DNA of 64,000 nt from a virus: the IMG/VR virus record IMGVR_UViG_3300025610_000001; one strand, given 5' to 3'. The stretch's first letter is position 1. Each line of letters starts with the position of its first letter. A model generated the notes under the pieces. The model was not told the origin of the DNA, did no database searches, and was given only the letters and a program-made list of their open reading frames with translations. This document shows positions 5,159 through 37,417 of this stretch, one piece after another. Position numbers and translations under genes: made by a program.

Positions 5159-5539
5159 ATGAATTGGCAAAATATTCTTAAAAATACTAAAAAAGATATT
5201 TTAGAGGGCCTTCATATTCTACAACAAAATATTACTCCAGACATTCTAGAAAAACATACAATGGAAAGAGGCATACATATGTTTAATATAAAAAAGAAAA
5301 ATGATAGTTTTTATTTTGGTCGTGTTAATCTGCGAATAAACGAACCTAAACCTGCTGGTTTTGGTTCTTCAAAAAATATCAAAAAACCTAAAGAAAAAAT
5401 TGTTTCTATAATTAAAGAACTTAAAGAAAGCAATTTGAAAAATTATTCCGATGAGAATGGAAAACTTAGGGCATTATTCGTAGTGATTACTCCAAACGTT
5501 GATGAACAATACCTAGAGATAGATATGAAGCGTAAATAA
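5159..5539 (+). CDS. W-tag protein (MNWQNILK...), 126 aa, unknown function
   Basis: Track ORF 5150..5539 trimmed. GATGATTAAC acts as the SD-like junction before ATG 5159. Confidence 0.7.
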   Translation: MNWQNILKNTKKDILEGLHILQQNITPDILEKHTMERGIHMFNIKKKNDSFYFGRVNLRINEPKPAGFGSSKNIKKPKEKIVSIIKELKESNLKNYSDENGKLRALFVVITPNVDEQYLEIDMKRK

Positions 5540-5541
5540 AA

Positions 5542-5565
5542 ATTCCAGCCCAAATTTTGAGAAAA
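5542..5565 (+). promoter_or_regulatory. Intergenic repeat copy B
   Basis: Identical 24-mer, immediately after the stop at 5539. Confidence 0.5.
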
Positions 5566-5576
5566 ACGTGATTACT

Positions 5577-5795
5577 ATGTGGAAAGACGAAATTATTAAA
5601 CGACAACCAAGAGATGTGCAACTAGAAAAGAATATTAATAGATTTATCAAAGAAATTGAAAATATGGAAAACAGATTATCAACAATGGATATGTATATTC
5701 CTTTACCTCAAAAAGCAGAAAGACCAATTAAAAAGGCTCTTAAGGCTTTAGAAGAGGCAGAAGAGGCACTAAGAGATGTTCTCGATGAAGTTTGA
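5577..5795 (+). CDS. W-tag protein (MWKDEIIK...), 72 aa
   Basis: The GTG at 5568 is part of the SD GTGATTACT. ATG 5577. Confidence 0.7.
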   Translation: MWKDEIIKRQPRDVQLEKNINRFIKEIENMENRLSTMDMYIPLPQKAERPIKKALKALEEAEEALRDVLDEV

Positions 5796-5801
5796 AAAAA
5801 A

Positions 5802-5825
5802 ATTCCAGCCCAAAATTTGAGAAAA
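5802..5825 (+). promoter_or_regulatory. Intergenic repeat copy C
   Basis: ATTCCAGCCCAAAATTTGAGAAAA. Confidence 0.5.
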
Positions 5826-5836
5826 GGTGATTAAAG

Positions 5837-6097
5837 ATGAAATGGGAAGATATATTAAAAGACACCAATACAGCAATAGCGAAGATTCTAAGTAAAATAT
5901 TTGTAAAAGAGTATATTCAAGAACTCTTAGCAAAGCCTAATCCGAAACAAGCGACTATTGAAGTATTAGAAAGTGAAATTAAATATACAAAACGAACTAT
6001 GGAAACCATAGTTCCTTATAAAATCCTAATAGAAGAACATCGAAAAAAGATTGCTAAATATGAAGAGGCTATTGAGAAAATAAAGAATTTAAAGTGA
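5837..6097 (+). CDS. W-tag protein (MKWEDILK...), 86 aa
   Basis: Track ORF with AGGTGATTAAAG SD. Confidence 0.75.
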   Translation: MKWEDILKDTNTAIAKILSKIFVKEYIQELLAKPNPKQATIEVLESEIKYTKRTMETIVPYKILIEEHRKKIAKYEEAIEKIKNLK

Positions 6098-6101
6098 TAT
6101 T

Positions 6102-6341
6102 ATGTGGAAAGACACTCTAAAGAAAAGAAAAACTAACTTAGGAAGAGGTTCTGGAGGCATGACTCCAGAAGAACTTAAAGAGGCTAAAGAAAGACTTAGA
6201 AGAAAAGAAAGAAGAAAAATACCTCTCAGCGAATTAAGAGAACAAGAAAACGACCCAGAATTTAGAGCAAAACAAGAAAGGGCAAGAAGAAGCGTCAAAG
6301 ATAAAAAAAGTGATTATTATGACATGGGAAGAAATACTTAA
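6102..6341 (+). CDS. W-tag protein (MWKDTLKK...), 79 aa, very basic
   Basis: Track ORF with GTGATATT SD. Confidence 0.7.
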   Translation: MWKDTLKKRKTNLGRGSGGMTPEELKEAKERLRRKERRKIPLSELREQENDPEFRAKQERARRSVKDKKSDYYDMGRNT

Positions 6342-6633
6342 AGAAAAATCCATATTTATAAAATTTCGTGAAGAATTAAATAATCTCCTGCGCCAAGCAG
6401 ATATTCTTGTGGGAAAAAAGTATAGCACTAGAGAAAAACAGTATGGTACTAGAGAAGAAGCATTTTTAAGGAAAGTTGATGCATTTTTGAACAAGTTGAA
6501 AGATAACGATATTACTGCTAAAACGGATAAAGGTCAAATTTTCTTTGATGCAAAAACAACAAAGAATCTAAAGGAATTGATTGAATTAGCAAAATACTAC
6601 AATGCTGGTAAAAGCGGAAAAGGTGATTTTTAA
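6319..6633 (+). CDS. W-tag protein (MTWEEILK...), 104 aa
   Basis: Trimmed from 6310. GTGATTATT SD. Overlaps the previous gene by 23 nt. Confidence 0.7.
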   Translation: MTWEEILKEKSIFIKFREELNNLLRQADILVGKKYSTREKQYGTREEAFLRKVDAFLNKLKDNDITAKTDKGQIFFDAKTTKNLKELIELAKYYNAGKSGKGDF

Positions 6634-6648
6634 AAAAAAGTGATTAAT

Positions 6649-6876
6649 ATGTGGAAAGATGAAATAATTAGAAAAAGGTCATTTACTCGACTTTATAGTA
6701 GAAATGAAAAAAGAGAAGCAATCAAAGAAGTAATGGATAGTTTAGAAGAAACTATCAAAATTGCTGAGAAAAATAATGAGCAGATGAAGTTGATGATTCT
6801 TCAAAGTTTAACATCGGCACGATTTGAATTACAAAAAAGATATGACACCATACAAGGCGATAGACCTTATCAATAA
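6649..6876 (+). CDS. W-tag protein (MWKDEIIR...), 75 aa
   Basis: Trimmed from 6640. GTGATTAAT SD. Confidence 0.7.
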   Translation: MWKDEIIRKRSFTRLYSRNEKREAIKEVMDSLEETIKIAEKNNEQMKLMILQSLTSARFELQKRYDTIQGDRPYQ

Positions 6877-6888
6877 AAAAGTGATTAA

Positions 6889-7122
6889 ATGTCAGAAGTT
6901 CCCATATTGTACTTGACTTCAACTGATACGTTAGAATTATTACAGAATTTAACAACTTTGCATAAAGACATCATACCCGATTTGGTGGAAAACATTTATA
7001 GGTATTCAGAAGATAAGTTGGAACTAGAGGACTTTGAGGATATGATAAAGGCTTTTCTTTACTTTACAAGTGAGGCATTAGATTCATTAGTTAGATTAAA
7101 TACGTTATTGCACAATCAATAG
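6889..7122 (+). CDS. Acidic small protein, 77 aa, no W-tag
   Basis: Track ORF with GTGATTAA SD. Confidence 0.65.
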   Translation: MSEVPILYLTSTDTLELLQNLTTLHKDIIPDLVENIYRYSEDKLELEDFEDMIKAFLYFTSEALDSLVRLNTLLHNQ

Positions 7123-7130
7123 GTGATATT

Positions 7131-7547
7131 ATGTGGAAAGGAATTGTTAAAAAACAAATTAGAAAAGGCGCAAGTTACGAAGAAGATTTCGTAAGTAAAC
7201 ATAAAGGTAAGCAGGATGATTTCGGTATTTATGTTCGTTCACCTGAAAATGTTAGCATTATTAAAGAAGAAGCAACATTAGAATGGACAGGTTCTATTGA
7301 AGTTTATTCTGCTGGCTTTGGTGCATTGAGTTCTTCATCCAATAAATTAACACTAGAAATAGAATATGTTAAAATGGGGGATGACGACGAGAAAGAAATA
7401 ACTAAAGAGTTCGTTTTTACTGGTAATTTTGAAGATGATGGAGGCGGTAATCCTGAAGATATTACAGTTGATATGGATTTTTCGGATTTTAACAATCCAA
7501 AGATTACAAAAGTGAAAGTAGCATATGAGGGGCGATTTAATGAGTGA
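7131..7547 (+). CDS. W-tag protein (MWKGIVKK...), 138 aa
   Basis: Track ORF with AGGTGATATT SD. Confidence 0.75.
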   Translation: MWKGIVKKQIRKGASYEEDFVSKHKGKQDDFGIYVRSPENVSIIKEEATLEWTGSIEVYSAGFGALSSSSNKLTLEIEYVKMGDDDEKEITKEFVFTGNFEDDGGGNPEDITVDMDFSDFNNPKITKVKVAYEGRFNE

Positions 7548-7695
7548 TTGGTCAAAACTTCTTAAAAATCAGAAAGAAGCGTCAAGCGCACAAAGCCTCG
7601 CTACTTTACAACAAAATCTAAAAGATGCACCAAGATATATTAAAATTGCATTAAATGAAATAGAAAGATACCTAATGGGTGAGAAAAATGTATAA
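7540..7695 (+). CDS. W-tag micro-protein (MSDWSKLLK...), 51 aa
   Basis: Not in the track because it is under 60 aa. ATGAGTGA overlap with the upstream stop. Confidence 0.5.
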   Translation: MSDWSKLLKNQKEASSAQSLATLQQNLKDAPRYIKIALNEIERYLMGEKNV

Positions 7696-8482
7696 GGACA
7701 TATTGAAGAGAGATAGAATGCCAAAGCCAAAAAGGGGCAAAGGCCGTCGTAGACAAACTGCTGAAAAAGACCGTAAAAAAGATGAATTTGGCGGTATGCA
7801 AATTAGTGGTGATGTTGAAGCAATTATTGGAAATAAAGAAGAGCGTGATAAAAGAGATGAAAGAGAAGCAGCCGATAAAAAATCTGGAAGGGTAAATCCC
7901 TTTGAAATAACTGCTGATTTTGCTCAAGCCACAGATGTTTTTGAAAAAGACTTTAATGACTTTGAAATATTTGATGAAATGAAAAAGCGAGTTAATGGGC
8001 TTTTTAAAGAGGCTGAGTTTTATTTTAAGCAAGGTGAAAAAAGGCAAAAGCAATTAGATACTGAATTTAAAGAAGCACTTAAGCGAAAACAAGGTATTGC
8101 TAGAGTAAGAAAAACTATTGAAACTTCAAACTATTATAGTCTTAAGAAATTCAATGAAAAACTAAAAAGCGAGAACATGAAAATTGGCAAAAAGAATTAT
8201 CCAGTTATTGAAGTTTTAGCAGCAATTGTGGTTGTTACTATTCAGGGTGATGATAAAGAAGCAACTGTTAGAGAAACATTTAATGACGCAGCCGATTACT
8301 TAGAAAGAAGGAATTTTGACCTTCTTACTCAAGGAGCGAATGGTTATAAGTTTTTGATAGATTTGGCTGAAAGATTAGGAATAGATGAATATGATAGGCC
8401 ACGCATGGTAGTAGGAAGAACAGGTAAATTTTATCTTGAAGAAGGACAAGCCACATATTTTGATTTAGACGATGTTCTTTGA
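7688..8482 (+). CDS. Tyr-variant tag protein (MYKDILKR...), 264 aa, basic N-terminal half
   Basis: Trimmed from GTG 7679. GGTGAGAAAA SD before ATG 7688. Confidence 0.7.
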   Translation: MYKDILKRDRMPKPKRGKGRRRQTAEKDRKKDEFGGMQISGDVEAIIGNKEERDKRDEREAADKKSGRVNPFEITADFAQATDVFEKDFNDFEIFDEMKKRVNGLFKEAEFYFKQGEKRQKQLDTEFKEALKRKQGIARVRKTIETSNYYSLKKFNEKLKSENMKIGKKNYPVIEVLAAIVVVTIQGDDKEATVRETFNDAADYLERRNFDLLTQGANGYKFLIDLAERLGIDEYDRPRMVVGRTGKFYLEEGQATYFDLDDVL

Positions 8483-8494
8483 ATAGGTGATTCT

Positions 8495-8905
8495 ATGAAC
8501 TGGTTTGAAGTATTGAAAAAAACAATGAACGCTTTAGAGTTCATTGAATATTTTCAAGAAAAGTTGGGAGGAAAACCAACTTATCCTAGTACTGCTAGTT
8601 TAAGAATACCTGAGAATAAACTCACAAGACCTATCGTTTACAAATTAGATTATCCAAATGGCTACATTAAAGTAACGATGGGTAAAAAAGGAGAAAAGCA
8701 CGTTAATGTAAATGGCGTAGTTGTGGCAAATGTTTTTAACCTAAAGGATGCAGTAGAAGAAGTAGAAGAGGCCGTTGGCTCAGATACCTTTGAAAAGAAA
8801 GCAGGTGGAGTATCATTTGGTGGTCATGGAACAAATCCAGAACTATTCAATATAAAATACGGAGGTGGAAAAGGTGGCAAAAAACGTAAGAAAGAAGACG
8901 AGTAA
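8495..8905 (+). CDS. W-tag protein (MNWFEVLK...), 136 aa, G/K-rich C-terminus
   Basis: Track ORF with AGGTGATTCT SD. Confidence 0.75.
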   Translation: MNWFEVLKKTMNALEFIEYFQEKLGGKPTYPSTASLRIPENKLTRPIVYKLDYPNGYIKVTMGKKGEKHVNVNGVVVANVFNLKDAVEEVEEAVGSDTFEKKAGGVSFGGHGTNPELFNIKYGGGKGGKKRKKEDE

Positions 8906-9956
8906 ATATAATAAACAGTCTATTACGCAAACCTTTGAAGGTTCTGATTTTCAAAAAGATTACAATGATTGGGAAAATCATTGTGATAGTATTGACAAAG
9001 ATGAGTTACAAGTTCAAAATGGAACGCTTTTGGACTTTTTAGTTCAACACGTTGATGAAGCAAGAGATGGCACATCAAGAAATGGTGCGAGATTGCCAAT
9101 CAAAGAAATACGTGAGATTTTAAATTCAGATATTATTACTAAGCCCGCTATTCAAAAAGTAAAAGATATGCGTAAGCATATTTCAGAAATGAAGAATAGC
9201 AAAGGTAAGGGTGGATTAGACCCAGCATTCATTTCATTTACAGATAGAGCCTATGATAAAAGAAACAAGTTTAGGTCAAAGCGAACTGTTTATGGACATT
9301 ACATGACTCAGAATTATGTTAATAGAAAGACGTTTAAGGATAAAAATTTCAAAGGTGAACCTGTTGATGGAGATTGGCTTACAGGAAAAAATCCTCCGCA
9401 TCTTGCATTATTCTCGGAAACAGAAGGAGATTACAGTAAGCCCTTTGGTTTGTTAAAAATTCTCGATAATGCCATTGATTCATTTAAAGAAATCACAGTT
9501 CAGCCTATTATTGATAGTATCACTAGAGCGAATGCTATGAAACTTGATAGTATTTACCCGATTGAAAAGTTCTTCGACAATGTTGTAAAAACAGATGGTT
9601 ATTGGAAAGCAAGCGGGGAATTGAAAACTTCTTCTGTTGCTTCTGAATTCAAAGCAACACAATTTGATGTAAAGCCAAGTGGTGCAAGAATCATACAAAG
9701 GCTTACAAATTTAGAAGATGTTGCGGGAAAAATTACTGCTTTTAAGATTAAAGCGACAATACCAATTAATTATTTGGTTGGTGAAGCACTTAAGAGAAAG
9801 AATAAGAAAAACGCACCTGCTGGAGAAAAGAACCGAGCATGGGCAAAATCAGGTTTTGATTACAGAAAGACTCGAAAAGAAGTATATGGCAAAGATACAA
9901 AGAGTCCAGACAAAAAGGTAATAAGTAAGTCATGGCAAGAAGTCATAAGGGCGTGA
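8865..9956 (+). CDS. Hypothetical protein, about 360 aa; ends with a W-motif relic SWQEVIRA
   Basis: Track ORF. No early ATG, so the start is probably GTG 8865 or GTG 8874 after GGAGGTG. Overlaps the previous gene by about 40 nt. Confidence 0.65.
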   Translation: MEKVAKNVRKKTSKYNKQSITQTFEGSDFQKDYNDWENHCDSIDKDELQVQNGTLLDFLVQHVDEARDGTSRNGARLPIKEIREILNSDIITKPAIQKVKDMRKHISEMKNSKGKGGLDPAFISFTDRAYDKRNKFRSKRTVYGHYMTQNYVNRKTFKDKNFKGEPVDGDWLTGKNPPHLALFSETEGDYSKPFGLLKILDNAIDSFKEITVQPIIDSITRANAMKLDSIYPIEKFFDNVVKTDGYWKASGELKTSSVASEFKATQFDVKPSGARIIQRLTNLEDVAGKITAFKIKATIPINYLVGEALKRKNKKNAPAGEKNRAWAKSGFDYRKTRKEVYGKDTKSPDKKVISKSWQEVIRA

Positions 9957-9961
9957 TGCAT

Positions 9962-10243
9962 ATGTGGAAAGCCATATTGAAGGATGAAAGGTTTGATGCC
10001 TTTAGACAAAATATGTCGAGTATGCACGAAGATATGCTAAGAGCAGAAAAAGGTTCAGTAATTTCAAGAGCCGAAAGTATGATAGAATCCTTGTTAGATT
10101 ACAAAGAAGACTTGATGGAAAAGAAGGAAAATAAAAGACTAGATAGATTTATTGATGACAATTTTCCTATAAGGCAAATAGATAGTCTAATCGCATCGTT
10201 AAGAAAATTTAAAGAAAGTATGGAAAAAAAATTAGGTGTTTAG
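9962..10243 (+). CDS. W-tag protein (MWKAILKD...), 93 aa
   Basis: Trimmed from 9932. GCGTGATGCAT junction. Confidence 0.7.
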   Translation: MWKAILKDERFDAFRQNMSSMHEDMLRAEKGSVISRAESMIESLLDYKEDLMEKKENKRLDRFIDDNFPIRQIDSLIASLRKFKESMEKKLGV

Positions 10244-10244
10244 T

Positions 10245-10580
10245 ATGTGGAAGAACGAAATTAAAAAGAATAGACGCAATTTGTCAAGAGATGACATTAA
10301 AAGATATTGGCCTGAACCTAGTGAATGGTATAAAGATTTAGAAGAAGTTCGGGGATTTGGTCAAATGTTTGAAGATTTTTTTAATCTCGGAGTAGGAGGC
10401 GGGGAAACTATTTGGTATTATTGGGAAAAACCATGGAAATGGAATCCTGAATATAAAATCCTATATGATGCAGGAATTAAATTAGGCTTAGACCCTGAAG
10501 ATTTAAAAGAATATATGTATGATAATAATATTTATTCTTTACAAGATTTAAAGAAACACATAGAGAAAAAGGATGATTAG
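10245..10580 (+). CDS. W-tag protein (MWKNEIKK...), 111 aa, Trp-rich
   Basis: Trimmed from 10236. GGTGTTTAGT junction. Confidence 0.7.
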   Translation: MWKNEIKKNRRNLSRDDIKRYWPEPSEWYKDLEEVRGFGQMFEDFFNLGVGGGETIWYYWEKPWKWNPEYKILYDAGIKLGLDPEDLKEYMYDNNIYSLQDLKKHIEKKDD

Positions 10581-10581
10581 T

Positions 10582-11064
10582 ATGTGGAAAGATATTTTAA
10601 AAGGCGAAGAAGTTCATCCTAGCGTAAAAGGTTTCATTGGTAGAAGAATGTCAAAAATTCGTCAAGCGATGATTAAAGAACAAAAAGAAATAGAAGAAGC
10701 GGAAGAGTTTATGCAAGGTAAACTTTATGCAAGTTACCCCTTTAAAATAAAAGACCAAGTAGAAAGGGGCATAAAAGAGCAAAAAGAAAAAATAGAAAAA
10801 TTAGGTAAAATAATAGGTGCTAAATTTAGTCCACAACATGATAAATTCCCTATGACCCCTTCACAAAGATTAAGCCCATCTACTAAAAAATTAAAAGTTA
10901 AAAGAATGGAAAGACCAAGTGCGTTTAGTTATAATCCTAAAGATACTTTTGATTCAAATGTTATGAGAAGATTTAATATTTCTGAGAAAGACTTTAATGC
11001 GATGAGTAGAGAAAGAAAGGATGGTTTTAGAGAAGGCTATAAATTATTAGAAGGGGATAAATAA
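10582..11064 (+). CDS. W-tag protein (MWKDILKG...), 160 aa
   Basis: Trimmed from 10573. GGATGATTAGT junction. Confidence 0.7.
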   Translation: MWKDILKGEEVHPSVKGFIGRRMSKIRQAMIKEQKEIEEAEEFMQGKLYASYPFKIKDQVERGIKEQKEKIEKLGKIIGAKFSPQHDKFPMTPSQRLSPSTKKLKVKRMERPSAFSYNPKDTFDSNVMRRFNISEKDFNAMSRERKDGFREGYKLLEGDK

Positions 11065-11065
11065 A

Positions 11066-11722
11066 ATGGTTACTCGTAAGCGTTGTGGTTTTTGCCAACA
11101 TGAAAATAGGGAAGAACTTGAATCCTTGTTAGAAACAGGGCAAGCAAGTTGTGATGCCCTAGATTTGCAGAATGATTGGAGAAGTGGAACTTCCTCCCAA
11201 CATCAAAGAAATCACATGGGGAACTATGAAATGGCTTCTAATCCTCGTTGTGTGCTATGCACAGACCCGATGAGAAAACACTATGAGATTGCGCTTTCGG
11301 AAGGTAATATCACAAGTGAAGCAGTTTCTGAGGCTCTAAACGTGTCGAAAGAACAGGTGCAACGGCACATGAAGCACCACTTGTCGCCATTGGTACAGAA
11401 ATCTGCGGCCTCCTTGATAGCGAAAAAGGAGGTAAATGAAGTTGATTTGTTATCAGCGAATGTTCAGCGATTAGATATGAAATTAGATGATGTATTCGCT
11501 ATGGATGATTTAGACCCAAAGGTGATTGATAGTCTCACCAAACTCGCTAGAGAGATTCGTGAATCATTAAAGTACCTTATGGAGTTTAAAGGCAAATTGG
11601 TTCATAAAAGACAAGATACAGTTATTTTCGCACAGATGCAAATTGTTCAAGAAGTGCTTGCACAGAACAATCCTGAGATTTGGCTTGACATTAAAAAAGA
11701 AATGCAGGAGAGATTACAATGA
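11066..11722 (+). CDS. Zinc-ribbon plus helix-turn-helix-like protein, 218 aa; candidate small terminase or regulator
   Basis: CGFC...C and C..C pairs. Segment ALNVSKEQVQRHMKHH. No W-tag. Codon usage is visibly less A/T-biased than the neighbours. Confidence 0.35.
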   Translation: MVTRKRCGFCQHENREELESLLETGQASCDALDLQNDWRSGTSSQHQRNHMGNYEMASNPRCVLCTDPMRKHYEIALSEGNITSEAVSEALNVSKEQVQRHMKHHLSPLVQKSAASLIAKKEVNEVDLLSANVQRLDMKLDDVFAMDDLDPKVIDSLTKLAREIRESLKYLMEFKGKLVHKRQDTVIFAQMQIVQEVLAQNNPEIWLDIKKEMQERLQ

Positions 11723-11991
11723 GTTGGGAAGATATAATTAAAAAAGAAAATGAATTACCCAAACCATTCAAAGATGTCATAAAATGGAAAGGCAAATATT
11801 ATAAACACTATGATACTAAAACAAGTGATTATGCACCTTTAGGAATTTATTATATATATTTTCCATCTGATAAAGATGGTAATTTAGTCGGTAATTCTCT
11901 AACTCATGAAATTAAAGAACTTGCTTTAGATTCGGATAGTGTAGATGCTAAGATAATTGAAGGCGATTTTGGCTATGTTGGTGTTGATTAA
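11719..11991 (+). CDS. W-tag protein (MSWEDIIK...), 90 aa; cassette flanked by an 18-bp direct repeat
   Basis: Track ORF. Repeat CAGGAGAGATTACAATGA at 11705-11722 and 11999-12016. Confidence 0.75.
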   Translation: MSWEDIIKKENELPKPFKDVIKWKGKYYKHYDTKTSDYAPLGIYYIYFPSDKDGNLVGNSLTHEIKELALDSDSVDAKIIEGDFGYVGVD

Positions 11992-28298: not shown

Positions 28299-28537
28299 CA
28301 GAAGAAAACAAGGTAAGTAACGACATTTTGGCTATATTGAAAGCCCTAACAGATAAAATTGAATCATTAGAGAGAACAGTTTATGCAAAGGATAATTTGC
28401 TAATGAAATCTGGTCTTGTTGTTTCTGAAAGCCCTACTCCAACAATGGATAATAAGATTGCTTCACCCGTTGGTGATGTAGCAAACATGGAATGGTCTGA
28501 AATTCACAAAATGGTAGAAAAGGTAGGAGGTCAATAA
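28295..28537 (+). CDS. Scaffold-like small protein, 80 aa, with the C-terminal peptide MEWSEIHKMV
   Basis: The helical N-terminal half and the C-terminal peptide are shared with the protease-scaffold protein. Confidence 0.5.
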   Translation: MTEENKVSNDILAILKALTDKIESLERTVYAKDNLLMKSGLVVSESPTPTMDNKIASPVGDVANMEWSEIHKMVEKVGGQ

Positions 28538-29075: not shown

Positions 29076-31589
29076 ATGCCTCTTCTCATTGAAAAGGATA
29101 AGGACTCTTCTGAAAAGATTATACGTCTTTTCGAGAAAACAAGAGTCGCTTATCTATCTGCTCGCACCGACCCCAAAGAATATGGGAATAGGTGGCGTAA
29201 AGCAATTGATGACATTAGAGAACTCTATGAAGAACTCAATGAATTTAGCAAGGAATTAAAACAATTCATACAAGAAGATGAATTAGAAAACAAAGAAGCA
29301 AAAGACCCAACAAGTAATATCGCTGAAAAGATTTACAACGGTATTAAAGAAATGCGTTTTGGTTCTGAATTAATTGAAGACCCTTTTGCTAAAAACTTCA
29401 AAGGCGATGTTCTTGAAGCATTACTTGAATCTCCAGAAACTATGATTAAATTTGTCCACTATGCTCTAAGGGCTGACAATAAATCCCTACCAAAAGAGAT
29501 TTGGAGCATTAAAGATATGCAACCCGACACGATAACTGAGGGTCTAACGGGACTTGACCTAGATGAAGACGATATTGCTCTCTACATTATCGAACAGTAT
29601 GGGGATGAAAAAGACTCAAAGAAGGTTGAAAGCAAAGTTAAATCAGCCTTAGAGATGTTAGAAACTTTATTCTTCTCCAAGTATAGTGAAGAAGAATTCG
29701 ATGAACTGAAAGACATTGAAGGTATTGAGAAGGCTGAAAAATCAGAAGACGAAAAGGCTGAATCAGACTTCCTTATTCCAAACAAACCTATGTATCGAAT
29801 CTTTGAGATTGACGATATGAAGGAATTAAAAGGTTTTAGTGGAGAATATATTATACAAGAAAAATACGATGGTATGAGAATACAGTTACATAAGATAGAT
29901 GATAACGTAAAGGTATTCTCATACAATGGTAACAATATTTCAGATAAGTGCCAAGAACAAATCAAAGAATTAAAGAAAAAGAAATACGGAGATTGCATTC
30001 TTGATGCAGAATTGATTCTATTTGATGGAGATGAAGCCCTACATCGGGCCGATACAATTGCACATATCTTTAAAGGTAAATATCCTGATGCAAAGGTAAG
30101 AGCGCACGTTTTTGATATTATGCGACACAACGAACAAAATCTTGTTGAAGAAGAATTAAAAGACAGAATCACTATTCTATTCAACAATTATGCATCACAT
30201 TCCACAGAATCAATAGAGTTCCCTTCAAAGAAAGATACTCGAACTGCTGATAATTTAAAAGATGTTGAAGAATATTCAAAAGAAATTATGGAGATGCCGA
30301 CATCAGAAGGAGTAGTAATTAAAGACTCTACATCAACATATTTTATAGGAACAAAAAAGAATCCTAAGTGGATTAAATGGAAGAAGTTTGTTGATTTAGA
30401 TTTAGTTGTTCTTGATAAGAAAACTACAAAATCCAATCTCAATTCTTATACTTTAGGCGCAGGGCCAGCAGAAGGAGAAGGTAAATTCTTTACTGAAATA
30501 GAAGGAAAAACCTACATGAATGTTGGAAAGGCTCTCAATACAAAAATAGAAGTAGACGTTGGAGATATTATTCGAGTTAAGGTTGATGAAGTCAAAAAGA
30601 ATGGAGATAGATATACTTTGTTTTCTGCGAAGGTTATTGAAGTTCCTGAAGTTGAATATCCAGATAAACTTGTAACATTAGAGATGCTTTCACAAGATAC
30701 TAAGAAGTCATTAAATTATGACGTAAAGGCATTAGAAAAAGGAATTAGAATCACAGACCACATACACGGTGAAGCAGATATTATTGTAAAATCAGATTTA
30801 GATGGTTTTACAATTTATGGTTTTGATGAAAGCAATCTAATGTCTAAGAATGCTATAATTGATATGGATATGTGGAAGTCAAAAGTCGAAGAGATTATGA
30901 AGACTAAGCAATCTAAATTGACTCAAATTGTCTTCAATTACCTAAAAAACATGGGTTCAAAAGAACCAAAAGAAATTCACAATTTCCTAACAAAGAAACA
31001 TAGTTCAGTTTATGAGGATATTCTTGAAGGAAAAATGTCAAGAGTCAAAGATTGGTTTGAAAATAGAGATGGCATTGGCTATGATACAAAAACCAAAAAA
31101 CTCTTTGCTGAAGAAGATAAAATTATCAAAGAACCTGAATTACTAAAAGCATATAAAACTCCAGAAAAATATAGAGAAGGGGAGTTTAAAGTATATCTTA
31201 GAAAAGATGATAACCTAAACATTGCCATGAAACTAGATGACGAAACAATCAACTGGTTTGTAAAATTAGAAAGTGATGATAATATATTTGATTTGTTTGG
31301 TAAAGCAGGTAAATATCCAGCAGAAGTAGCAAAGACTTCTTCAAGAGAAAAGGTAGTTGATTCTGGTTCTGTGAAATTAGGTGTCCAAAAAGAAGGCTAT
31401 CATGAATATTTCTTAAATGGTAATAAATTCCAAACTAAAATTCACTTTAGAGTTGTAGAGAGTAAAGGTGATAAAATGTGGATTGCTTGGACTGGCTACA
31501 AACAAGAACCTGCTGACGACGATGAGGACAAGGGATTGTGGAATATCTATGAAGATAGGTATAACTCCTTGACCATACCGACTGAATAA
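29076..31589 (+). CDS. ATP-dependent DNA ligase core with large N- and C-terminal extensions, 837 aa
   Basis: Motif I EKYDGMR (KxDG), motif III ILDAELILF, motif IV EGVVIKD, motif V KWIKWKK. Confidence 0.8.
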   Translation: MPLLIEKDKDSSEKIIRLFEKTRVAYLSARTDPKEYGNRWRKAIDDIRELYEELNEFSKELKQFIQEDELENKEAKDPTSNIAEKIYNGIKEMRFGSELIEDPFAKNFKGDVLEALLESPETMIKFVHYALRADNKSLPKEIWSIKDMQPDTITEGLTGLDLDEDDIALYIIEQYGDEKDSKKVESKVKSALEMLETLFFSKYSEEEFDELKDIEGIEKAEKSEDEKAESDFLIPNKPMYRIFEIDDMKELKGFSGEYIIQEKYDGMRIQLHKIDDNVKVFSYNGNNISDKCQEQIKELKKKKYGDCILDAELILFDGDEALHRADTIAHIFKGKYPDAKVRAHVFDIMRHNEQNLVEEELKDRITILFNNYASHSTESIEFPSKKDTRTADNLKDVEEYSKEIMEMPTSEGVVIKDSTSTYFIGTKKNPKWIKWKKFVDLDLVVLDKKTTKSNLNSYTLGAGPAEGEGKFFTEIEGKTYMNVGKALNTKIEVDVGDIIRVKVDEVKKNGDRYTLFSAKVIEVPEVEYPDKLVTLEMLSQDTKKSLNYDVKALEKGIRITDHIHGEADIIVKSDLDGFTIYGFDESNLMSKNAIIDMDMWKSKVEEIMKTKQSKLTQIVFNYLKNMGSKEPKEIHNFLTKKHSSVYEDILEGKMSRVKDWFENRDGIGYDTKTKKLFAEEDKIIKEPELLKAYKTPEKYREGEFKVYLRKDDNLNIAMKLDDETINWFVKLESDDNIFDLFGKAGKYPAEVAKTSSREKVVDSGSVKLGVQKEGYHEYFLNGNKFQTKIHFRVVESKGDKMWIAWTGYKQEPADDDEDKGLWNIYEDRYNSLTIPTE

Positions 31590-31599
31590 TGCGTGGGTA

Positions 31600-31607: not shown

Positions 31608-31626
31608 TCAAATCAGATAAACTGGT

Positions 31627-32835
31627 TTGAACGACATGAGCATCAGTATTAGTGCATCCAGAAATGATGATTTTCTCATCATTAAAAGCGATGAACTGAT
31701 GATTGGTGGTTATGCTTCAATTGAAATTGTTGATAAGCAAAATGACTTAATCACGCTTAAAGCATTAAACGAAGCAGTTCAAAAATTTATGTCAAAGTCT
31801 GAATATAGAAATGTAATGACAAATCATTCAAATGTTCAAGTCGGAGAGGTAGTAGATTCATATAGAGATAAAACAGGGAGATTGTGGAAAACTGAAGTTG
31901 ATGACGTTGGTTTCTTTGTTGTAATTAAATTAAGAGATGATATAGAAAAAGCCAAAGAAGTTGGTAGAAACATTCGCAAAGGGTCATTAAGGTCTTTTAG
32001 CATTGGTGGACAGGCATTAAAAAAGTCTAAGAAAAACCACGACGAATTAGGAGAATATAACGAAATTAGTAAGTTAGAACTCCATGAAGTAACAATATGC
32101 GAAAAAGGAATTAATCCCGAAGCGAGATTCGATATTCTAAAACAGGATAAAGGAAGTGAAAAAATGTCTGATAAACTAGAAAAAGCATTGGAAGAATTAG
32201 ACGCATTGATGGAAGAAGTCAATACGTTGAGAAAGGAAGAAGAAGAAGAAGGAAAGGAAGCATTAGAAATGGCTGACCCTAAAACGGAAGAAATGGAAAT
32301 GTCTGATGAAAGTGAAGAAGAAATGGAATCTTCTGAATATGCTGATTTTGAAAGCGCAGATAAGGCATACCTCCGCACATTAGATGGTGCTGGTAATCAA
32401 ATCGGTGAACCTGCTGATAGAATCGTCATTAACAATGGTCGCCCGACATCTTCGGATATGCCTGTTGTTAAGGCATTCGGAAACAATGAGTTAGAAACTC
32501 TTGATTTGTCCGTTGGCAACATTGAGAAGGCTTACGAGGCTTTCCGACAAGAACAACTTGAAAAGTTGGCTTATGATAACTTGCAAAAGTCTTTTGAAGA
32601 CCGATTTGCAAGAGAAAAGAATGTAAGAGAGAATACTCTCGCAAAGTCGCAATATGACGCACAAAGCGAAATTGCTTCTCTAAAGGATGAATTTACAGCA
32701 TTGAGAAAGTCCTTAACTGCTGAAAAGGAAACAATCCTAAAGGCTCAAGAAGAGGCTAAGGTTGAACTCCCAAGTATTGATGATTTGGCCGAAATGGATT
32801 GGTCAGACATTCACAAGATGGTAGGAGGTTATTAA
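31627..32835 (+). CDS. HK97-type prohead protease fused to an acidic coiled-coil scaffold-like C-terminal half
   Basis: N-terminal GGYAS...DKQND...H...SFSIGG...HEVTICEKGINPEA pattern. E-rich C-terminal half ending MDWSDIHKMVGGY. The start is TTG 31627 or ATG 31636. Confidence 0.75.
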   Translation: MNDMSISISASRNDDFLIIKSDELMIGGYASIEIVDKQNDLITLKALNEAVQKFMSKSEYRNVMTNHSNVQVGEVVDSYRDKTGRLWKTEVDDVGFFVVIKLRDDIEKAKEVGRNIRKGSLRSFSIGGQALKKSKKNHDELGEYNEISKLELHEVTICEKGINPEARFDILKQDKGSEKMSDKLEKALEELDALMEEVNTLRKEEEEEGKEALEMADPKTEEMEMSDESEEEMESSEYADFESADKAYLRTLDGAGNQIGEPADRIVINNGRPTSSDMPVVKAFGNNELETLDLSVGNIEKAYEAFRQEQLEKLAYDNLQKSFEDRFAREKNVRENTLAKSQYDAQSEIASLKDEFTALRKSLTAEKETILKAQEEAKVELPSIDDLAEMDWSDIHKMVGGY

Positions 32836-32836
32836 G

Positions 32837-34171
32837 ATGACTGGATATATTAACACAATTGCAGATTTAGAAGCACAAACATACGGAACAGGCACTTTTG
32901 CTGGCAATTCTTTGCTTAAGCAAGCAGGAATGGTTGGTGGCATTCATACAGGACATGATGGTGGCCCATCTTTTAGCGGTTCAGCCGTTTCAGATGTTTC
33001 AGCCCTATACAACGTCGTTTACGGACAAAAAGTTTGGTCTATGTTGAATAGAGAAGTAAATGCTCTTTCAATGATTTCAAAGCGACCATACTCTTCTAGC
33101 GGTTGGAGAGTTCTAAAGTCAAGACCTGCGGGTGGAAGCGGTAATCTATTTACTGTTGATACTTCGGGAACTGCTTCTTTAGGAGAATTAGGTTCTGATG
33201 ACCCAAGAGCAGATTTAATTGGTGGTGTTCCTGAAAACGCTGCATTGTCTACATCAGCAGATGGTTTAGGCCCAATTGCACCAACATATGCTCAATTGAA
33301 CATGAGTCCAAAGGTTATTGCTCATCAATTCGATTTCAGCGAATTGGCTATGGAAATGGCTCAGATTGACGATGGAATTGGCGATATTAGAGCGCAAATG
33401 CGTGAAGATATGGGCAAGCACCACGCAGAAGTTCAAAACAAGATGTTAGTTATGCCTTTGGAACATTTCGGTGAATCTGCGGCTATGCCTAACATTACTA
33501 ACAACTATACCTCATTAAACAAGGTTATCTCTTCAAGAGCAGAATTGTTGGCTATTGATGGTGGAGTTATCGCTACTGATACTACTTCTGCTTCTAACGC
33601 ATTAGGACAGATTTACGGTAGTGAGAGATTTACTGCCGCATCTTTCCTAGATTCTGAAGTTGATTTTGGTTCGGGATATGCTTCTGGAAATGTTCGTTCT
33701 TTGACTCTAACTCGTCTTAATGACATGATTAGAAACCTAAGACTTGCAGGTGGTTCACCAAAGGTTATTTTAACTGGATATGATACCATTCAAGCACTTG
33801 CTGACCTATTGCAAAGCCAAGAAAGATTTATGGACAGAAAGGAGATTGTTCCTACTGTAAATGGTGTTCGTGGAACAAAGGGTCAAGAAGTTGGATTTAG
33901 AGTTGCAACATACTATGATATTCCATTGATTCCTGTTAAGGACATGGCTACAACGGGTAATGCTTCAACAAAGTTATCTGACCTATTATTCCTCGATACT
34001 GACCATCTATGGCTTTCTGTTATGAAGCCAACTCAATACTTTGAGGATGGTATTGCGAATGGAAACCCATTTGGTGTTGGAACTCTCGGAAACCGAGCAT
34101 TGTATCGAACAATTGGTGAAGTCGGATGTTCCTTCTTTAAGGGTCAAGGTAAGATTACTAACATTCAATGA
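32837..34171 (+). CDS. Major capsid protein
   Basis: 444 aa, directly after the protease-scaffold gene. Less A/T-biased codon usage, typical of a highly expressed gene. No motif-level proof. Confidence 0.7.
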   Translation: MTGYINTIADLEAQTYGTGTFAGNSLLKQAGMVGGIHTGHDGGPSFSGSAVSDVSALYNVVYGQKVWSMLNREVNALSMISKRPYSSSGWRVLKSRPAGGSGNLFTVDTSGTASLGELGSDDPRADLIGGVPENAALSTSADGLGPIAPTYAQLNMSPKVIAHQFDFSELAMEMAQIDDGIGDIRAQMREDMGKHHAEVQNKMLVMPLEHFGESAAMPNITNNYTSLNKVISSRAELLAIDGGVIATDTTSASNALGQIYGSERFTAASFLDSEVDFGSGYASGNVRSLTLTRLNDMIRNLRLAGGSPKVILTGYDTIQALADLLQSQERFMDRKEIVPTVNGVRGTKGQEVGFRVATYYDIPLIPVKDMATTGNASTKLSDLLFLDTDHLWLSVMKPTQYFEDGIANGNPFGVGTLGNRALYRTIGEVGCSFFKGQGKITNIQ

Positions 34172-34202
34172 GGAAAGGAAAAGAAAAAGGAGATGATTTA
34201 TT

Positions 34203-34466: not shown

Positions 34467-34476
34467 GGTGATTTAA

Positions 34477-34830: not shown

Positions 34831-34840
34831 GGTGATTTGA

Positions 34841-35203
34841 ATGGTTACTGTTAAATTGACAGAAAGTAGTCAATTAGGTGGTAGGTATGTTATTGAAGGA
34901 TTAGAAGGGAGGACTGAGATTACTCGGAATGATTCTACTTCTGTTCCTTTACGCAGGGCTATTGTTGCTTTATCTGATTCAAACCTTATGTTTGAGTTTG
35001 ATGAGTCAGATAGAGAAGGTCTGCTTAATCTTTCTGAAAAACTTTTAGAAATTGGTCTTAAAGAAATCGGAAAAGAAAGTGGAACTGCACAAGATTTGTG
35101 CGATGTTCTTCTTCCTAAGAAAGCAACCTCTAAACCTAAGAGCAAACCTAAGCCAAAGAAAACTTCAACAACGGCTAAAAAGTCTGCTTTAAGTGAAGAT
35201 TGA
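34841..35203 (+). CDS. Hypothetical protein, 120 aa, lysine/proline-rich tail
   Basis: Track ORF with GAGGTGATTTGA SD. Confidence 0.7.
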   Translation: MVTVKLTESSQLGGRYVIEGLEGRTEITRNDSTSVPLRRAIVALSDSNLMFEFDESDREGLLNLSEKLLEIGLKEIGKESGTAQDLCDVLLPKKATSKPKSKPKPKKTSTTAKKSALSED

Positions 35204-35254
35204 AACCGAAGTCTTAAGTAGGGAATCCTCCCTGCTCGTATTGAAGGTGATAAC

Positions 35255-35557
35255 ATGGCAAATCAGGTATGTCGTTCAAGTGGTGTTTTAGGTTCTGATG
35301 GAATTGTTAATAGGGAACAATCTCTATTGATTAGCATTCATGCAAACTTAATTATTGCAGGTAACGCTTTAGTTACAGTTAAGGTGTTTGATGGAACAAG
35401 TGCAAGTGGAACAGAAATAGCGAGAATTACTCATTCTGTAACAGGTCATTATAACATTGAATATGATATGCATGGAGTATTATGCAGAAATGGTATCTTT
35501 GTTCAGATTGTCGAGAACGGTTCTTCAACAGCAGAAGTTTCTGTTGAATTCGCTTGA
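35255..35557 (+). CDS. Hypothetical small protein, 100 aa
   Basis: Track ORF with AGGTGATAAC SD. Confidence 0.7.
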   Translation: MANQVCRSSGVLGSDGIVNREQSLLISIHANLIIAGNALVTVKVFDGTSASGTEIARITHSVTGHYNIEYDMHGVLCRNGIFVQIVENGSSTAEVSVEFA

Positions 35558-35566
35558 GGTGATAAA

Positions 35567-35965
35567 ATGCCAGCATTAAACACAGATACTCGTTTAGTTA
35601 TGACTATTCTCTTTGTTGGAACAGTAAGCGGTGCTAATGTTTTCTTTTATGCAACTTATGGGACTACTTTCCCATATACGCCTTTAGCACATTCTGTTCT
35701 CTTTGGTTTAATTACTGTTGGAACAATCATGGTTATGAAAGCCCTCTTTGATATTTCACTTAACGATAAGATTGAATTATGGTTATTAGACCGTAAGATT
35801 AGTGCTTATTGGGCTAGAATGGCAAGAGATGAAGAACAAAGAAAGAAACTTCAAGATACTGCTAAATCATACAATCTTTCTCCCTATGCGGGATTAGCAC
35901 CTATGGCACAGTCTTATGAATCAGAAAATACAGTTTCTTCTGATTTCTTGACTACGCTACAATAG
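35567..35965 (+). CDS. Membrane protein, 132 aa, two N-terminal hydrophobic helices
   Basis: Hydrophobic segments LVMTILFVGTVSGANVFFYA and VLFGLITVGTIMVMKALF. Confidence 0.65.
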   Translation: MPALNTDTRLVMTILFVGTVSGANVFFYATYGTTFPYTPLAHSVLFGLITVGTIMVMKALFDISLNDKIELWLLDRKISAYWARMARDEEQRKKLQDTAKSYNLSPYAGLAPMAQSYESENTVSSDFLTTLQ

Positions 35966-35973
35966 GTGAGTAA

Positions 35974-36192
35974 ATGGTTGTATCGGATTGGTTAGGTTTT
36001 AGCGATTCTGATTATGCGTATAATCAGCAAAGAGCGCATTCAGCAGACATTCTCTTTCTAAAAATGAGAATGTGGTTTTGGGCTAGTTGCGCTACGCTTT
36101 CAGCATTTTTAATTGGAAACATCATGGGTGTTTTTGATATTAATGTAATGGGTTGGTTATTTGATAACCTTCTCGGTGGGTGGGGTCATTAA
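35974..36192 (+). CDS. Small membrane protein, 72 aa
   Basis: Hydrophobic segment WFWASCATLSAFLIGNIMGVF. Confidence 0.6.
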   Translation: MVVSDWLGFSDSDYAYNQQRAHSADILFLKMRMWFWASCATLSAFLIGNIMGVFDINVMGWLFDNLLGGWGH

Positions 36193-36854
36193 TGTCATTA
36201 ATGACAGGCTTTGCTATTTTAGTCGGAGAAGCAATATTAGGTTTTTACAAAAAAGTTCATGCAATTAATTTTGGAGTATATGGTGCAACAATGGTTGGTA
36301 AAACTACATTACATCATCAATTAAGAACAAGAGGTGAAGTTCCGACAATACAGAAAAGAACTGTTGGTCGTCATCGAGCAACTAGAAAATCTATTAAATT
36401 AGATGGAGAAATGAATACTCTTAGAACATCAGATATTGGCGGAGAAGCAATGTATTGGAAAGAATGGGCTAAAGATATGCAAATGAGAAAAGTAAAATAT
36501 GTTATATTTATGATTGACCATAGGCATTTAGATAAAGGCGGTAATTTAGACCATCAGGTAGCATGGAAATTCTTAGTTGATACAATTACAAACGATAGGT
36601 GGCCTAGCGGTAAAAAGAAGAAAGAAGCAGATTATCCAATGGCAGTTGCTATTTGGGCAAACAAATATGATGTTTGGGGAGATAAATACAAGAGCGATGC
36701 ACCGATTGACAAGCATCCAATTTTTGAACCTTTTAAATATGGTATGCAAAAATTAAATAATGTAGGAATACCGACGCATAAATATATTGTATCGGCAAAA
36801 TCCCAACCCGAAGCAGTTTATCAAGGAATATTTACGATGATTAAGGATTATTGA
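36192..36854 (+). CDS. Ras-superfamily small GTPase (Arf-like G3) with a hydrophobic N-terminus
   Basis: G1 GATMVGKTT, G3 DIGGE, G4 NKYD, G5 SAK. N-terminus MSLMTGFAILVGEAILGF. TAATG overlap with the upstream gene. The track start is GTG 36180. Confidence 0.7.
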   Translation: MSLMTGFAILVGEAILGFYKKVHAINFGVYGATMVGKTTLHHQLRTRGEVPTIQKRTVGRHRATRKSIKLDGEMNTLRTSDIGGEAMYWKEWAKDMQMRKVKYVIFMIDHRHLDKGGNLDHQVAWKFLVDTITNDRWPSGKKKKEADYPMAVAIWANKYDVWGDKYKSDAPIDKHPIFEPFKYGMQKLNNVGIPTHKYIVSAKSQPEAVYQGIFTMIKDY

Positions 36855-36859
36855 TTATT

Positions 36860-37417
36860 ATGTGGTTCGATATTCTTAAAAGTTTAAGACGTTATGCTCT
36901 TTCAGATAGTGATAAAATAAATAAAAAAGAAAGGCCAACAGGAACAGGAAGTAAGCCTAGAGGATTATGGTATTCTTTTTCACTAGGACAGGGATGGCTA
37001 AAATTTATGCAAGAAGAAAGACATTATAATTTGCAAGGAAAGATGGATTCATATAAGTATATTTTAGAACTTGATACGTCTAGTGTTAATATTTTAAAAA
37101 TAAATACTAAAAAGAAATTAGATTCCTTTATTAAAATCTACAAAATAAATCCTTCAGATGATATGGATGCTAAATTTTGGTGGCCTTTGGTTGCTCTAAG
37201 GTATGATGGAATAGAATTTTCTAACGGTATGTATGCTAAACATGATACTATAAGAAGAAATTGGGATATGGATTCTGGTTGTATTTGGAACACCACTTCA
37301 TTAAAAATAAAAAAAGTTAAACCATTAGAAGAAAGACAAAAAACTTATGTAAACCCTAGTATGAGAGAATACTATAAAATGAGAGAAGAAGAGATGAAAC
37401 GAAGGGAGAAAGATTAG
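36860..37417 (+). CDS. W-tag protein (MWFDILKS...), 185 aa
   Basis: Trimmed from TTG 36851. This is the only W-tag gene outside the 5-23 kb region. Confidence 0.7.
   Translation: MWFDILKSLRRYALSDSDKINKKERPTGTGSKPRGLWYSFSLGQGWLKFMQEERHYNLQGKMDSYKYILELDTSSVNILKINTKKKLDSFIKIYKINPSDDMDAKFWWPLVALRYDGIEFSNGMYAKHDTIRRNWDMDSGCIWNTTSLKIKKVKPLEERQKTYVNPSMREYYKMREEEMKRREKD

Follow-up and report, generated by a model that had tools for sequence, protein, structure and literature searches.

Short capsid-addressing peptides are already known from phages T4 and P1. In T4, the capsid targeting sequence (CTS) sends the internal proteins (IPs) into the scaffolding core, and these are injected with the DNA as anti-defense proteins (PMC3012670, PMC9958956). 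In P1, an N-terminal segment of the large anti-restriction protein DarB suffices to target that protein, or else a reporter, to the inside of the capsid (PMC9024508). Here, we analyze a peptide of about eight residues that opens 23 otherwise unrelated genes in a stretch of viral DNA 64,000 nucleotides (nt) in length (IMG/VR record IMGVR_UViG_3300025610_000001; hereafter, the window), assigned to a magrovirus, a tailed virus of marine Poseidoniales archaea. We tentatively propose that this tag may be a portable prohead-docking peptide that mimics the tail of the viral prohead protease and of a small scaffold-like protein.

The T4 CTS, on which Mullaney and Black reportedly worked in 1996 (cited in PMC9024508), is unrelated in sequence to the magrovirus tag and is cleaved by the prohead protease. 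As with the tag, the CTS of IPII and IPIII is an N-terminal peptide of ~10 residues that alone is common to diverse, fast-evolving, small, and often basic proteins, and the injected modifying enzyme Alt parallels a tagged GNAT acetyltransferase of magroviruses. T4, however, has a handful of carriers, whereas magrovirus genomes each have more than 20 and the lineage as a whole has at least 180 families; unlike the CTS, the tag also occurs at C-termini, resembles the protease and scaffold tail, belongs to viruses of an archaeal host, and is known from genes alone. The P1 DarB signal spans 30 residues of one protein, whereas the magrovirus tag is a short consensus on many genes. In HK97, lambda, and herpesviruses, a segment common to protease and scaffold binds the capsid protein and secures encapsidation; targeting of the HK97-type protease by a capsid-binding segment was reportedly the subject of Duda, Oh and Hendrix in 2013 (J Mol Biol 425:2765; cited in PMC12749128). 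HK97 gp4, lambda C/Nu3, and herpesvirus UL26/UL26.5 represent the arrangement found here, a protease and a separate small protein with a common C-terminal segment. There, the tail is borne only by protease and scaffold, whereas the magrovirus core has apparently been copied onto dozens of unrelated genes, and magrovirus tail and tag differ at the two positions that follow [IV]. Encapsulins and bacterial microcompartments offer a further analogy: like the proposed tag, their short terminal peptides dock unrelated cargo inside a shell, which in encapsulins has the HK97 fold, as does the magrovirus capsid protein. Those systems are cellular and accommodate few cargo types, whereas the magrovirus tag is viral, has many carriers, and is known from sequence; the peptides of family 1 encapsulins are of the L-T-V-G-S-L type, a consensus unlike the tag. 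The magrovirus and Poseidoniales virus papers we searched make no mention of an N-terminal motif, and broader full-text searches likewise found none, which agrees with an earlier reading of the window from its letters (the original prediction) that had not recognized the tag as a described system. Apparently undescribed are the tag sequence itself, a reach of more than 20 genes in each genome and at least 180 families overall, placement at the C- as well as the N-terminus, the likeness to the tail, and the presence of such a tag in an abundant archaeal virus lineage.

All 23 coordinates that the original prediction had given as starts of tagged genes fall on a start codon (ATG, or GTG at 25105) with a GGTGAT-type Shine-Dalgarno (SD) sequence 5–9 nt upstream. 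The corresponding open reading frames (ORFs), of 51–941 codons, open with M-x(0-2)-[W/Y]-x-x-[IVL]-[ILV]-[KR]. The canonical core, W-x-x-Φ-Φ-K (Φ, hydrophobic), is present with invariant spacing in 18 of the 23 genes, the first Φ being Thr in the gene at 6102. A sub-variant, W-K-[DN]-E-I-[IK]-[KR], accounts for three more (5577, 6649, and 10245), and its Glu is seen again in relatives (MTWKDEIK, MSWKEEIK); the remaining two (7688 and 25105) have Tyr for Trp. The spacing of the motif had been regarded as variable; instead, exactly two residues separate Trp from the hydrophobic pair. In a six-frame search of the whole 64 kb, matches were nearly confined to the 23 N-termini, and 15 strict matches occur among SD-called starts of the window, versus ~0.01 per 62 ORFs expected from 2,000 residue shuffles (the top shuffle gave one match). 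Both the predicted starts and the shared peptide are thus upheld. So is the claim that the bodies of these proteins are unrelated past the tag, as BLASTP among the tagged proteins beyond residue 12 found no mutual similarity (best E = 0.016). Tagged genes make up 23 of the 47 plus-strand genes in 5159–37417 (61 plus-strand genes in 5159–57739); the tag is found on none of the 14 plus-strand genes downstream of 37417, which are tail genes, and on no minus-strand gene. The tagged genes, with protein lengths in amino acids (aa), are as follows.

5159–5539, plus strand: N-tagged gene, 126 aa, MNWQNILK; SD GATGAT; preceded by an intergenic repeat
5577–5795, plus strand: N-tagged gene, 72 aa, MWKDEIIK, sub-variant with Glu
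5837–6097, plus strand: N-tagged gene, 86 aa, MKWEDILK
6102–6341, plus strand: N-tagged gene, 79 aa, MWKDTLKK
6319–6633, plus strand: N-tagged gene, 104 aa, MTWEEILK
6649–6876, plus strand: N-tagged gene, 75 aa, MWKDEIIR, sub-variant
7131–7547, plus strand: N-tagged gene, 138 aa, MWKGIVKK
7540–7695, plus strand: N-tagged gene, 51 aa, MSDWSKLLK
7688–8482, plus strand: N-tagged gene, 264 aa, Tyr variant MYKDILKR
8495–8905, plus strand: N-tagged gene, 136 aa, MNWFEVLK; tagged in 10 of 10 family members
9962–10243, plus strand: N-tagged gene, 93 aa, MWKAILKD
10245–10580, plus strand: N-tagged gene, 111 aa, MWKNEIKK, sub-variant
10582–11064, plus strand: N-tagged gene, 160 aa, MWKDILKG
11719–11991, plus strand: N-tagged gene, 90 aa, MSWEDIIK
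17465–18274, plus strand: N-tagged gene, 269 aa, MGWKDILK
19709–20035, plus strand: N-tagged gene, 108 aa, MWEDILKR; immediately 3′ of TerL
21417–21878, plus strand: N-tagged gene, 153 aa, MNWMNILK; strongly basic C-terminus
22006–22272, plus strand: N-tagged gene, 88 aa, MSWKEILK, basic; tagged in 66 of 86 family members
22277–22516, plus strand: N-tagged gene, 79 aa, MNWQEVLK; body matches phrog_17747
22513–22821, plus strand: N-tagged gene, 102 aa, MSWRDILK
22818–23186, plus strand: N-tagged gene, 122 aa, MKWEEIIK; immediately 5′ of the portal gene
25105–27930, plus strand: N-tagged gene, 941 aa, GTG start, Tyr variant MSYSEILRK; 3′ of the portal gene
36860–37417, plus strand: N-tagged gene, 185 aa, MWFDILKS

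Relatives of the gene at 25105 start with MSFSEILKK or MSFFEIIKK. A paralogous gene family was rejected as the source of the shared peptide, the bodies being unrelated past residue 12, as was a gene-calling artifact, given the position of the SD sequences and the long ORFs.

Several observations adjoin the tagged genes. Three copies of an intergenic element, AAAAATTCCAGCCCAAA(A/T)TTTGAGAAAA, occupy 5104–5144, 5525–5565, and 5785–5825, just 5′ of the SD sequences of the first three tagged genes; the element is a candidate promoter or regulatory element of this promoter-proximal tagged cluster. A promoter and terminator scan stayed at chance level, with models that are bacterial and unsuited to an archaeal virus. 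The 933-aa protein encoded at 14041–16842 starts with MSMSEVIKAK, which is tag-like with Met for Trp (MSMSEIIKAP in two relatives); a long coiled coil is predicted at its residues 59–169, and a 12-sequence model is all-alpha with a fold that is unusable (predicted local distance difference test [pLDDT] 48, predicted template modeling score 0.28). At 27936–28298 lies a member of a conserved 120-aa family (99 members) that starts M-T-W-D-[YF]-Y-E-E-G...F-I-L; it has the M-T-W-D of the tag without I-L-K at the canonical spacing and may carry a diverged or split tag.

We sampled relatives of the virus as 163 loci around capsid and TerL genes (close relatives) and ~157 loci of divergent lineages. 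Tag-initial ORFs constitute ~19% of SD-called ORFs in the former and 213 of 2,477 in the latter. Single-linkage clustering gave 144 families that are wholly tagged, 38 that are mixed, mostly through start-calling errors, and 313 that are untagged. The original prediction had proposed a logo and a scan of related viral genomes as a check, and these find the tag lineage-wide, in at least 180 families that are mostly or wholly tagged. The logo, built from 174 family representatives, reads M-[S>N,T]-W-[K,E,Q,F]-[D>N,E]-[I>V]-[L>I]-K, and its information is at background from the first residue past Lys; this sharp end to conservation fits a self-contained module. Trp is kept in 497 of ~525 tags, and the Lys of N-terminal copies shows 97% invariance.

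It is the peptide, not the nucleotide sequence, that is under selection. The Trp codon begins 3, 6, 9, or 12 nt past the ATG in 50, 376, 52, and 10 unique cases, respectively, and out of frame in ~10, such that ~490 of ~500 unique cases are in frame; the third positions of the Ile, Leu, and Lys codons, meanwhile, are nearly free. Within orthologous families, the Trp, Ile, Leu, and Lys columns are 0.8–1.0 identical versus 0.4–0.8 for the bodies, with many synonymous differences. Protein-level selection and synonymous codon variation at Ile, Leu, and Lys, both put forward in the original prediction, are thereby borne out, the latter by near-free third positions and by the many synonymous changes between orthologs. 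A nucleotide-level element is excluded because the frame is kept and the wobble positions are free, and a recombination box was rejected on the same in-frame placement and free wobble positions. We also scanned viruses and cells with the pattern SD-N(4-9)-ATG-N(0-6)-tag. IMG/VR yielded 122 in-frame versus 10 out-of-frame spacings; in the cellular control (185,579 species genomes scanned), 56 in-frame versus 64 out-of-frame spacings were found among the matches listed. The cellular matches listed (at least 120) are isolated single ones in unrelated bacteria, a background control that is uninformative on Poseidoniales.

Some bodies have homologs that lack the tag. Residues ~30–160 of the protein encoded at 36860 are homologous to Microbacterium and Mycobacterium phage proteins without a tag, and the body of the protein encoded at 22277 is homologous to an untagged protein of SAR116 phage HMO-2011. 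Judging from these homologs, the tag is an add-on. A homolog search with the 22277 gene returned close relatives only, plus two matches through the tag alone.

From its placement, the motif also appears to work at C-termini. W-x-x-Φ-Φ-[KR] lies 7–9 residues ahead of the stop codon in ~7 independent families, commonly with Arg in place of Lys, and 27 of 31 C-terminal copies share the frame of the long upstream ORF. In one relative (L135), a single protein is tagged at both ends. This use at either terminus fits a docking peptide functional at both ends. Two genes of the window that lack an N-terminal tag bear the motif at their C-terminus.

8874–9956, plus strand: C-tagged gene, 360 aa, ending KSWQEVIRA*; motif at 9933–9950
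16847–17464, plus strand: GNAT acetyltransferase (putative), C-tagged, 205 aa, ending EWKKILRGD*; motif at 17438–17455

In the family of 8874–9956, the strict C-terminal pattern is present in 7 of 29 members. The steadiest C-terminal carrier is the second gene, found directly 5′ of TerL in relatives of every sub-lineage, where the tails vary (KWMEVLKWN, AWFNVLKRHR, GWWSIIKMR, and others) and the motif is retained throughout. By its sequence similarities, this gene encodes a GNAT acetyltransferase: Acetyltransf_1 (Pfam) scores 28.8 and 28.7 bits in two relatives (L102 and L087) and 20.4 in the window copy, with a cut-off of 20.7, and NCBIfam indicates similarity to ArsN2-type GNATs. Searches of PDB sequences and NCBIfam with the GNAT and its neighboring genes gave generic GNAT similarity only. 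Foldseek matches of a single-sequence model are all GNATs, the top ones being RimI-type N-terminal acetyltransferases, and a helix is predicted across the C-terminal tag; the model is of low confidence (pLDDT 54.6). Other conserved C-terminal Trp motifs occur in divergent lineages (L416, L418, L451, L517, L523, L531, L533, L537, L540, L561, and others), where [DEH]-E-W-S-S-[VL]-D-D-A-S closes proteins of 340–595 aa (and one 90-aa ORF) and G-G-W-H-L-L-S-S-L-W or I-A-W-N-G-L-V-D-F-W closes proteins of 73–74 aa.

A sequence resembling the tag is also found near the C-termini of two proteins, listed here with the major capsid protein.

28295–28537, plus strand: scaffold-like protein, 80 aa; tag-like MEWSEIHK at 28487–28510
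31699–32835, plus strand: prohead protease (Peptidase_S78), 378 aa; tag-like MDWSDIHK at 32794–32817, five residues before the C-terminus
32837–34171, plus strand: major capsid protein (HK97-type), putative receptor of tail and tag

The protease ends in ...LAEMDWSDIHKMVGGY and the 80-aa protein in ...ANMEWSEIHKMVEKVGGQ. Since the latter aligns to protease residues 316–375 (BLASTP, E = 3e-6), it is a stand-alone copy of the C-terminal part of the protease. The sequence M-[DE]-W-[SK]-[DE]-I-H-K-M-V is kept in 73 of 75 protease homologs and in ~95 short scaffold-like homologs, and in an exhaustive search, S78 proteases down to 34% identity keep a tail of the form [KN]-M-[SD]-W-x-[DE]-[IV]-[HNE]-x-[LIV]. 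When a profile of the tag was run over 38,516 positions of untagged family representatives, the protease tail emerged as the second-best non-terminal site. Tag and tail have the core M-x-W-x-[DE]-[IV] in common and differ at positions +4 and +5. The original prediction had held that structural and replication proteins are untagged; this stands for capsid, portal, tail, and replication-type proteins and fails for the protease, which it had listed as free of the motif and which bears M-[DE]-W-S-[DE]-I-H-K near its C-terminus. No covariation of tail with tag was found across the ~157 divergent loci, where tails have H-K, H-N, N-A, N-E, or R-K and tags have I-L-K everywhere; tail and tag may therefore touch the receptor differently or use different receptors. 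In halovirus HVTV-1, the protease lacks a tail of this kind, and there is thus no support from a cultured relative. At residues ~23–31 of the capsid protein, we observed a conserved G-N-[AS]-L-L-K-Q-A-G (D-I-L-K-Q-A-G in one divergent relative), which is reminiscent of the I-L-K that closes the tag and is a possible site of cleavage during maturation.

The carriers are small and soluble. No transmembrane helix was predicted in the 174 tagged family representatives, whose median length is 110 aa and whose isoelectric points are bimodal (>9 in 41%, <6 in 41%). Pfam searches with 10, then 110 tagged proteins gave one PAP2 match, a few domains of unknown function, and marginal matches, and PHROGs assigned members of the 110 to six families, one member each (five of unknown function, one transcriptional regulator). 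Carriers had been predicted to cluster around the packaging and head block, and their density is indeed highest around TerL and the portal gene: the tagged share is 35%–60% at −10 to −6 kb from TerL, 21%–53% at −4 to −1 kb, and 29%–55% at +2 to +5 kb, as far as the portal gene, and ~5% beyond. Taken together, about half of the ORFs in the 10 kb 5′ of TerL are tagged. Some stretches in IMG/VR hold 15–19 tagged genes within 14 kb.

Genes for TerL, portal, S78 prohead protease, HK97-type major capsid protein, tail tube, and an ERCC4 nuclease are present in the window. The gene at 29076–31589, situated between those for the portal and the protease, encodes 837 aa that include an ATP-dependent DNA ligase domain (residues 250–436). 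According to Philosof et al. (PMC5434244), a ligase inside the structural module of ~100 kb linear genomes is the hallmark of groups A and B of the magroviruses, which infect Marine Group II (Poseidoniales) archaea. About 600 relatives of the capsid protein are present in IMG/VR, many of them on marine contigs of 90–96 kb; the closest TerL match in a cultured virus is 27% identical. Because the ligase is embedded in a tailed-virus morphogenetic module and the genome is of ~100 kb, we assign the window to a magrovirus, a tailed virus of marine Poseidoniales with a genome of ~95 kb, by module layout and the genomes of relatives. Most magrovirus genes lack recognizable homologs, and a sliding clamp and a chaperonin are among the proteins these viruses encode (PMC5434244).

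Some further features of this context can be recorded. The ligase protein has long N- and C-terminal extensions beyond its ligase domain. Between TerL and the following tagged block, 20044–21414 encodes a 456-aa protein with a weak match to an HNH-endonuclease PHROG (E = 1.3e-4), probably the nuclease described as inserted in magrovirus structural modules (PMC5434244). One IMG/VR contig (3300021958_000021; 184,733 bp; loci L091 and L161) holds two TerL copies ~90 kb apart; it represents a concatemer or, alternatively, a fusion of two related genomes. A search of the window for tRNAs found none.

Our preferred reading, to which we accord slightly less than an even chance, is that the tag is a portable prohead-docking, or cargo-loading, peptide that mimics the protease and scaffold tail. 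We favor it because the peptide is self-contained, is used at either terminus and on hundreds of unrelated proteins, clusters with head genes, and has a core in common with the tail. On the model of HK97, lambda, and herpesviruses, the prohead protease and the small scaffold-like protein would be held to the inner face of the HK97-fold shell by their tail, M-[DS]-W-x-[DE]-[IV]. The tag M-[SNT]-W-x-[DEN]-[IV]-[LI]-K, mostly N-terminal and sometimes present as W-x-x-Φ-Φ-[KR] at the extreme C-terminus, would imitate this tail and dock proteins to the assembling prohead, such that a gene gaining eight codons after its ATG would have its product co-assembled into the capsid interior. The cargo would comprise, per genome, more than 20 proteins that are small, soluble, and highly charged and that turn over rapidly, together with the conserved GNAT acetyltransferase; possibly clipped after Lys by the prohead protease, it would reach the host cell along with the viral DNA, in the manner of T4 internal proteins and Alt. 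In this analogy, we infer that the tail would bind the capsid protein and the tag would use the same site, with encapsidation, cleavage, and ejection to follow. The fuller scenario, in which magroviruses turned the capsid-binding tail of protease and scaffold into a universal eight-residue cargo tag and co-inject more than 20 hypervariable proteins per genome, from hundreds of families in the lineage, and an acetyltransferase, is conceivable, with the balance tipped somewhat against it.

The capsid-addressing idea of the original prediction gains indirect support: tail resemblance, C-terminal copies, small soluble carriers, and clustering at TerL and portal speak for it, and the covariation test came out negative. 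Several further points weigh against prohead docking. The tag system is known here from genes of uncultured viruses. The core common to tag and tail is just M-x-W-x-[DE]-[IV], and because the Met of the tag is a forced initiator and the core alone is common, the informative overlap is ~12 bits. Positions +4 and +5 of the tails change by lineage while tags stay I-L-K across the divergent loci, C-terminal tags lack Met at position −2, and the protease of the related halovirus HVTV-1 is without such a tail. The largest tagged cluster (5159–11991), which is promoter-proximal, could consist of early genes rather than of virion components. To have over 20 kinds of cargo in one capsid is a high number, an objection tempered by the ~50 proteins of SPN3US heads (PMC7411985).

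An unlikely alternative is that the tag docks its carriers to another common hub, foremost a sliding clamp (viral or host proliferating cell nuclear antigen, PCNA), or else a host chaperone, polymerase, or ribosome. Like the tag, the PCNA-interacting protein (PIP) box is terminal, at one end or the other, in many unrelated clients of a single hub and places hydrophobic residues at i, i+3, and i+4 ahead of a basic one; the spacing Φ-x-[D]-Φ-Φ-K mirrors the PIP-box core L-x-[D/S]-F-F-K. Moreover, I-L-K stays invariant across lineages whose capsid and protease proteins are down to ~45% identity, a constancy that points to a highly conserved receptor, the small tagged genes at 5159–11991 resemble early host-takeover genes, and magroviruses themselves encode both a sliding clamp and a chaperonin (PMC5434244). 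The logo, however, has neither the Gln nor the aromatic pair of the PIP consensus Q-x-x-[LIM]-x-x-[FY]-[FY], the carriers lie in the morphogenetic rather than the replicative block, replication-type proteins of the window are untagged, and a related motif is found on the prohead protease and the scaffold-like protein. The sharp drop in conservation after Lys also suits a cleavage site of the S78 prohead protease, whereby a propeptide would be cut after Φ-Φ-K with no addressing role and the substrates would be the tags, the protease tail, and perhaps the N-terminus of the capsid protein (G-N-A-L-L-K-Q-A-G). I-H-K in the protease and scaffold tails and the conserved L-L-K near the capsid protein N-terminus (D-I-L-K in one relative) are compatible with this, and the T4 CTS is likewise cut by its prohead protease. 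Yet trimming 8 N-terminal or 1–4 C-terminal residues would serve no obvious purpose without addressing, and an invariant Trp five residues ahead of the presumed cut would be unusual in a motif that served for cleavage only. Substrates of prohead proteases must in any case reach the prohead interior; because these proteases act inside proheads, the cleavage reading largely merges into the docking one, and we consider it decidedly unlikely as an explanation in its own right.

The conserved position of the GNAT directly 5′ of TerL, its ever-present C-terminal motif, and its Foldseek matches, all to GNATs and best to RimI-type N-terminal acetyltransferases, raise the possibility, in our view quite improbable, that the tag is the recognition motif of this enzyme; acetylation would fall on the N-terminus or on the Lys of the tag, and the enzyme's own C-terminal copy would serve as an auto- or regulatory pseudo-substrate. 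The 97% invariance of Lys at N-termini would fit, but Arg replaces Lys in many C-terminal tags, making this residue more likely a charge contact than an acetyl acceptor. In addition, Trp falls at residue 2 to 4, unlike what is expected for N-alpha acetyltransferases, which read the first residues; the matches come from a low-confidence model (pLDDT 54.6); and the protease and scaffold tail is left unexplained. A translation-level feature, be it a favorable context of start-proximal codons or nascent peptide or a site on the mRNA bound by a RegA-like (T4) translational regulator, would account for A/T-rich tag codons directly after the ATG and for C-terminal copies that lie 17–35 nt 5′ of the next ATG and abut its SD sequence. 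We hold it very improbable: the motif is in frame in 490 versus ~10 cases after starts, and 27 of 31 upstream copies are in frame with a long ORF; wobble positions are free and the single-codon Trp is the most conserved position; the highly expressed capsid, tail tube, and portal genes and all minus-strand genes are untagged despite having the same SD; and the pattern is at chance level among the cellular matches listed. Barely credible, finally, is a generic amphipathic membrane-targeting helix like the termini of MinD, FtsA, and SepF. It would be terminal at either end and could be formed by Trp and two aliphatic residues followed by Lys or Arg, but ~1.5 helical turns are too short for it, and the tag is too specific (Trp in 497 of ~525, fixed spacing, conserved acidic residue), generic helices tolerating wide substitution.

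If prohead docking is correct, it would assign a common fate at once to 10%–25% of magrovirus genes, mostly of unknown function, and up to a quarter of the magrovirus proteome would be virion cargo. Among archaeal tailed viruses, it would be the first such signal on record, one that arises when the scaffold and protease tail is copied to the start of any gene, at its initiator Met. As a natural viral counterpart of encapsulin cargo loading, it would link capsid assembly to encapsulin-type loading, and as an eight-residue natural capsid-loading tag it would be attractive for protein encapsulation. Whatever its function, the tag is a simple marker for spotting magrovirus contigs, and even with another receptor, one docking peptide on so many unrelated proteins would mark an undiscovered hub. 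Poseidoniales and magroviruses form a globally abundant, uncultured system, and magroviruses rank with the most abundant viruses in surface waters of the ocean; in this system, cargo loading would mean that a large, fast-evolving set of proteins, likely host-takeover or anti-defense factors, is delivered into Poseidoniales cells.

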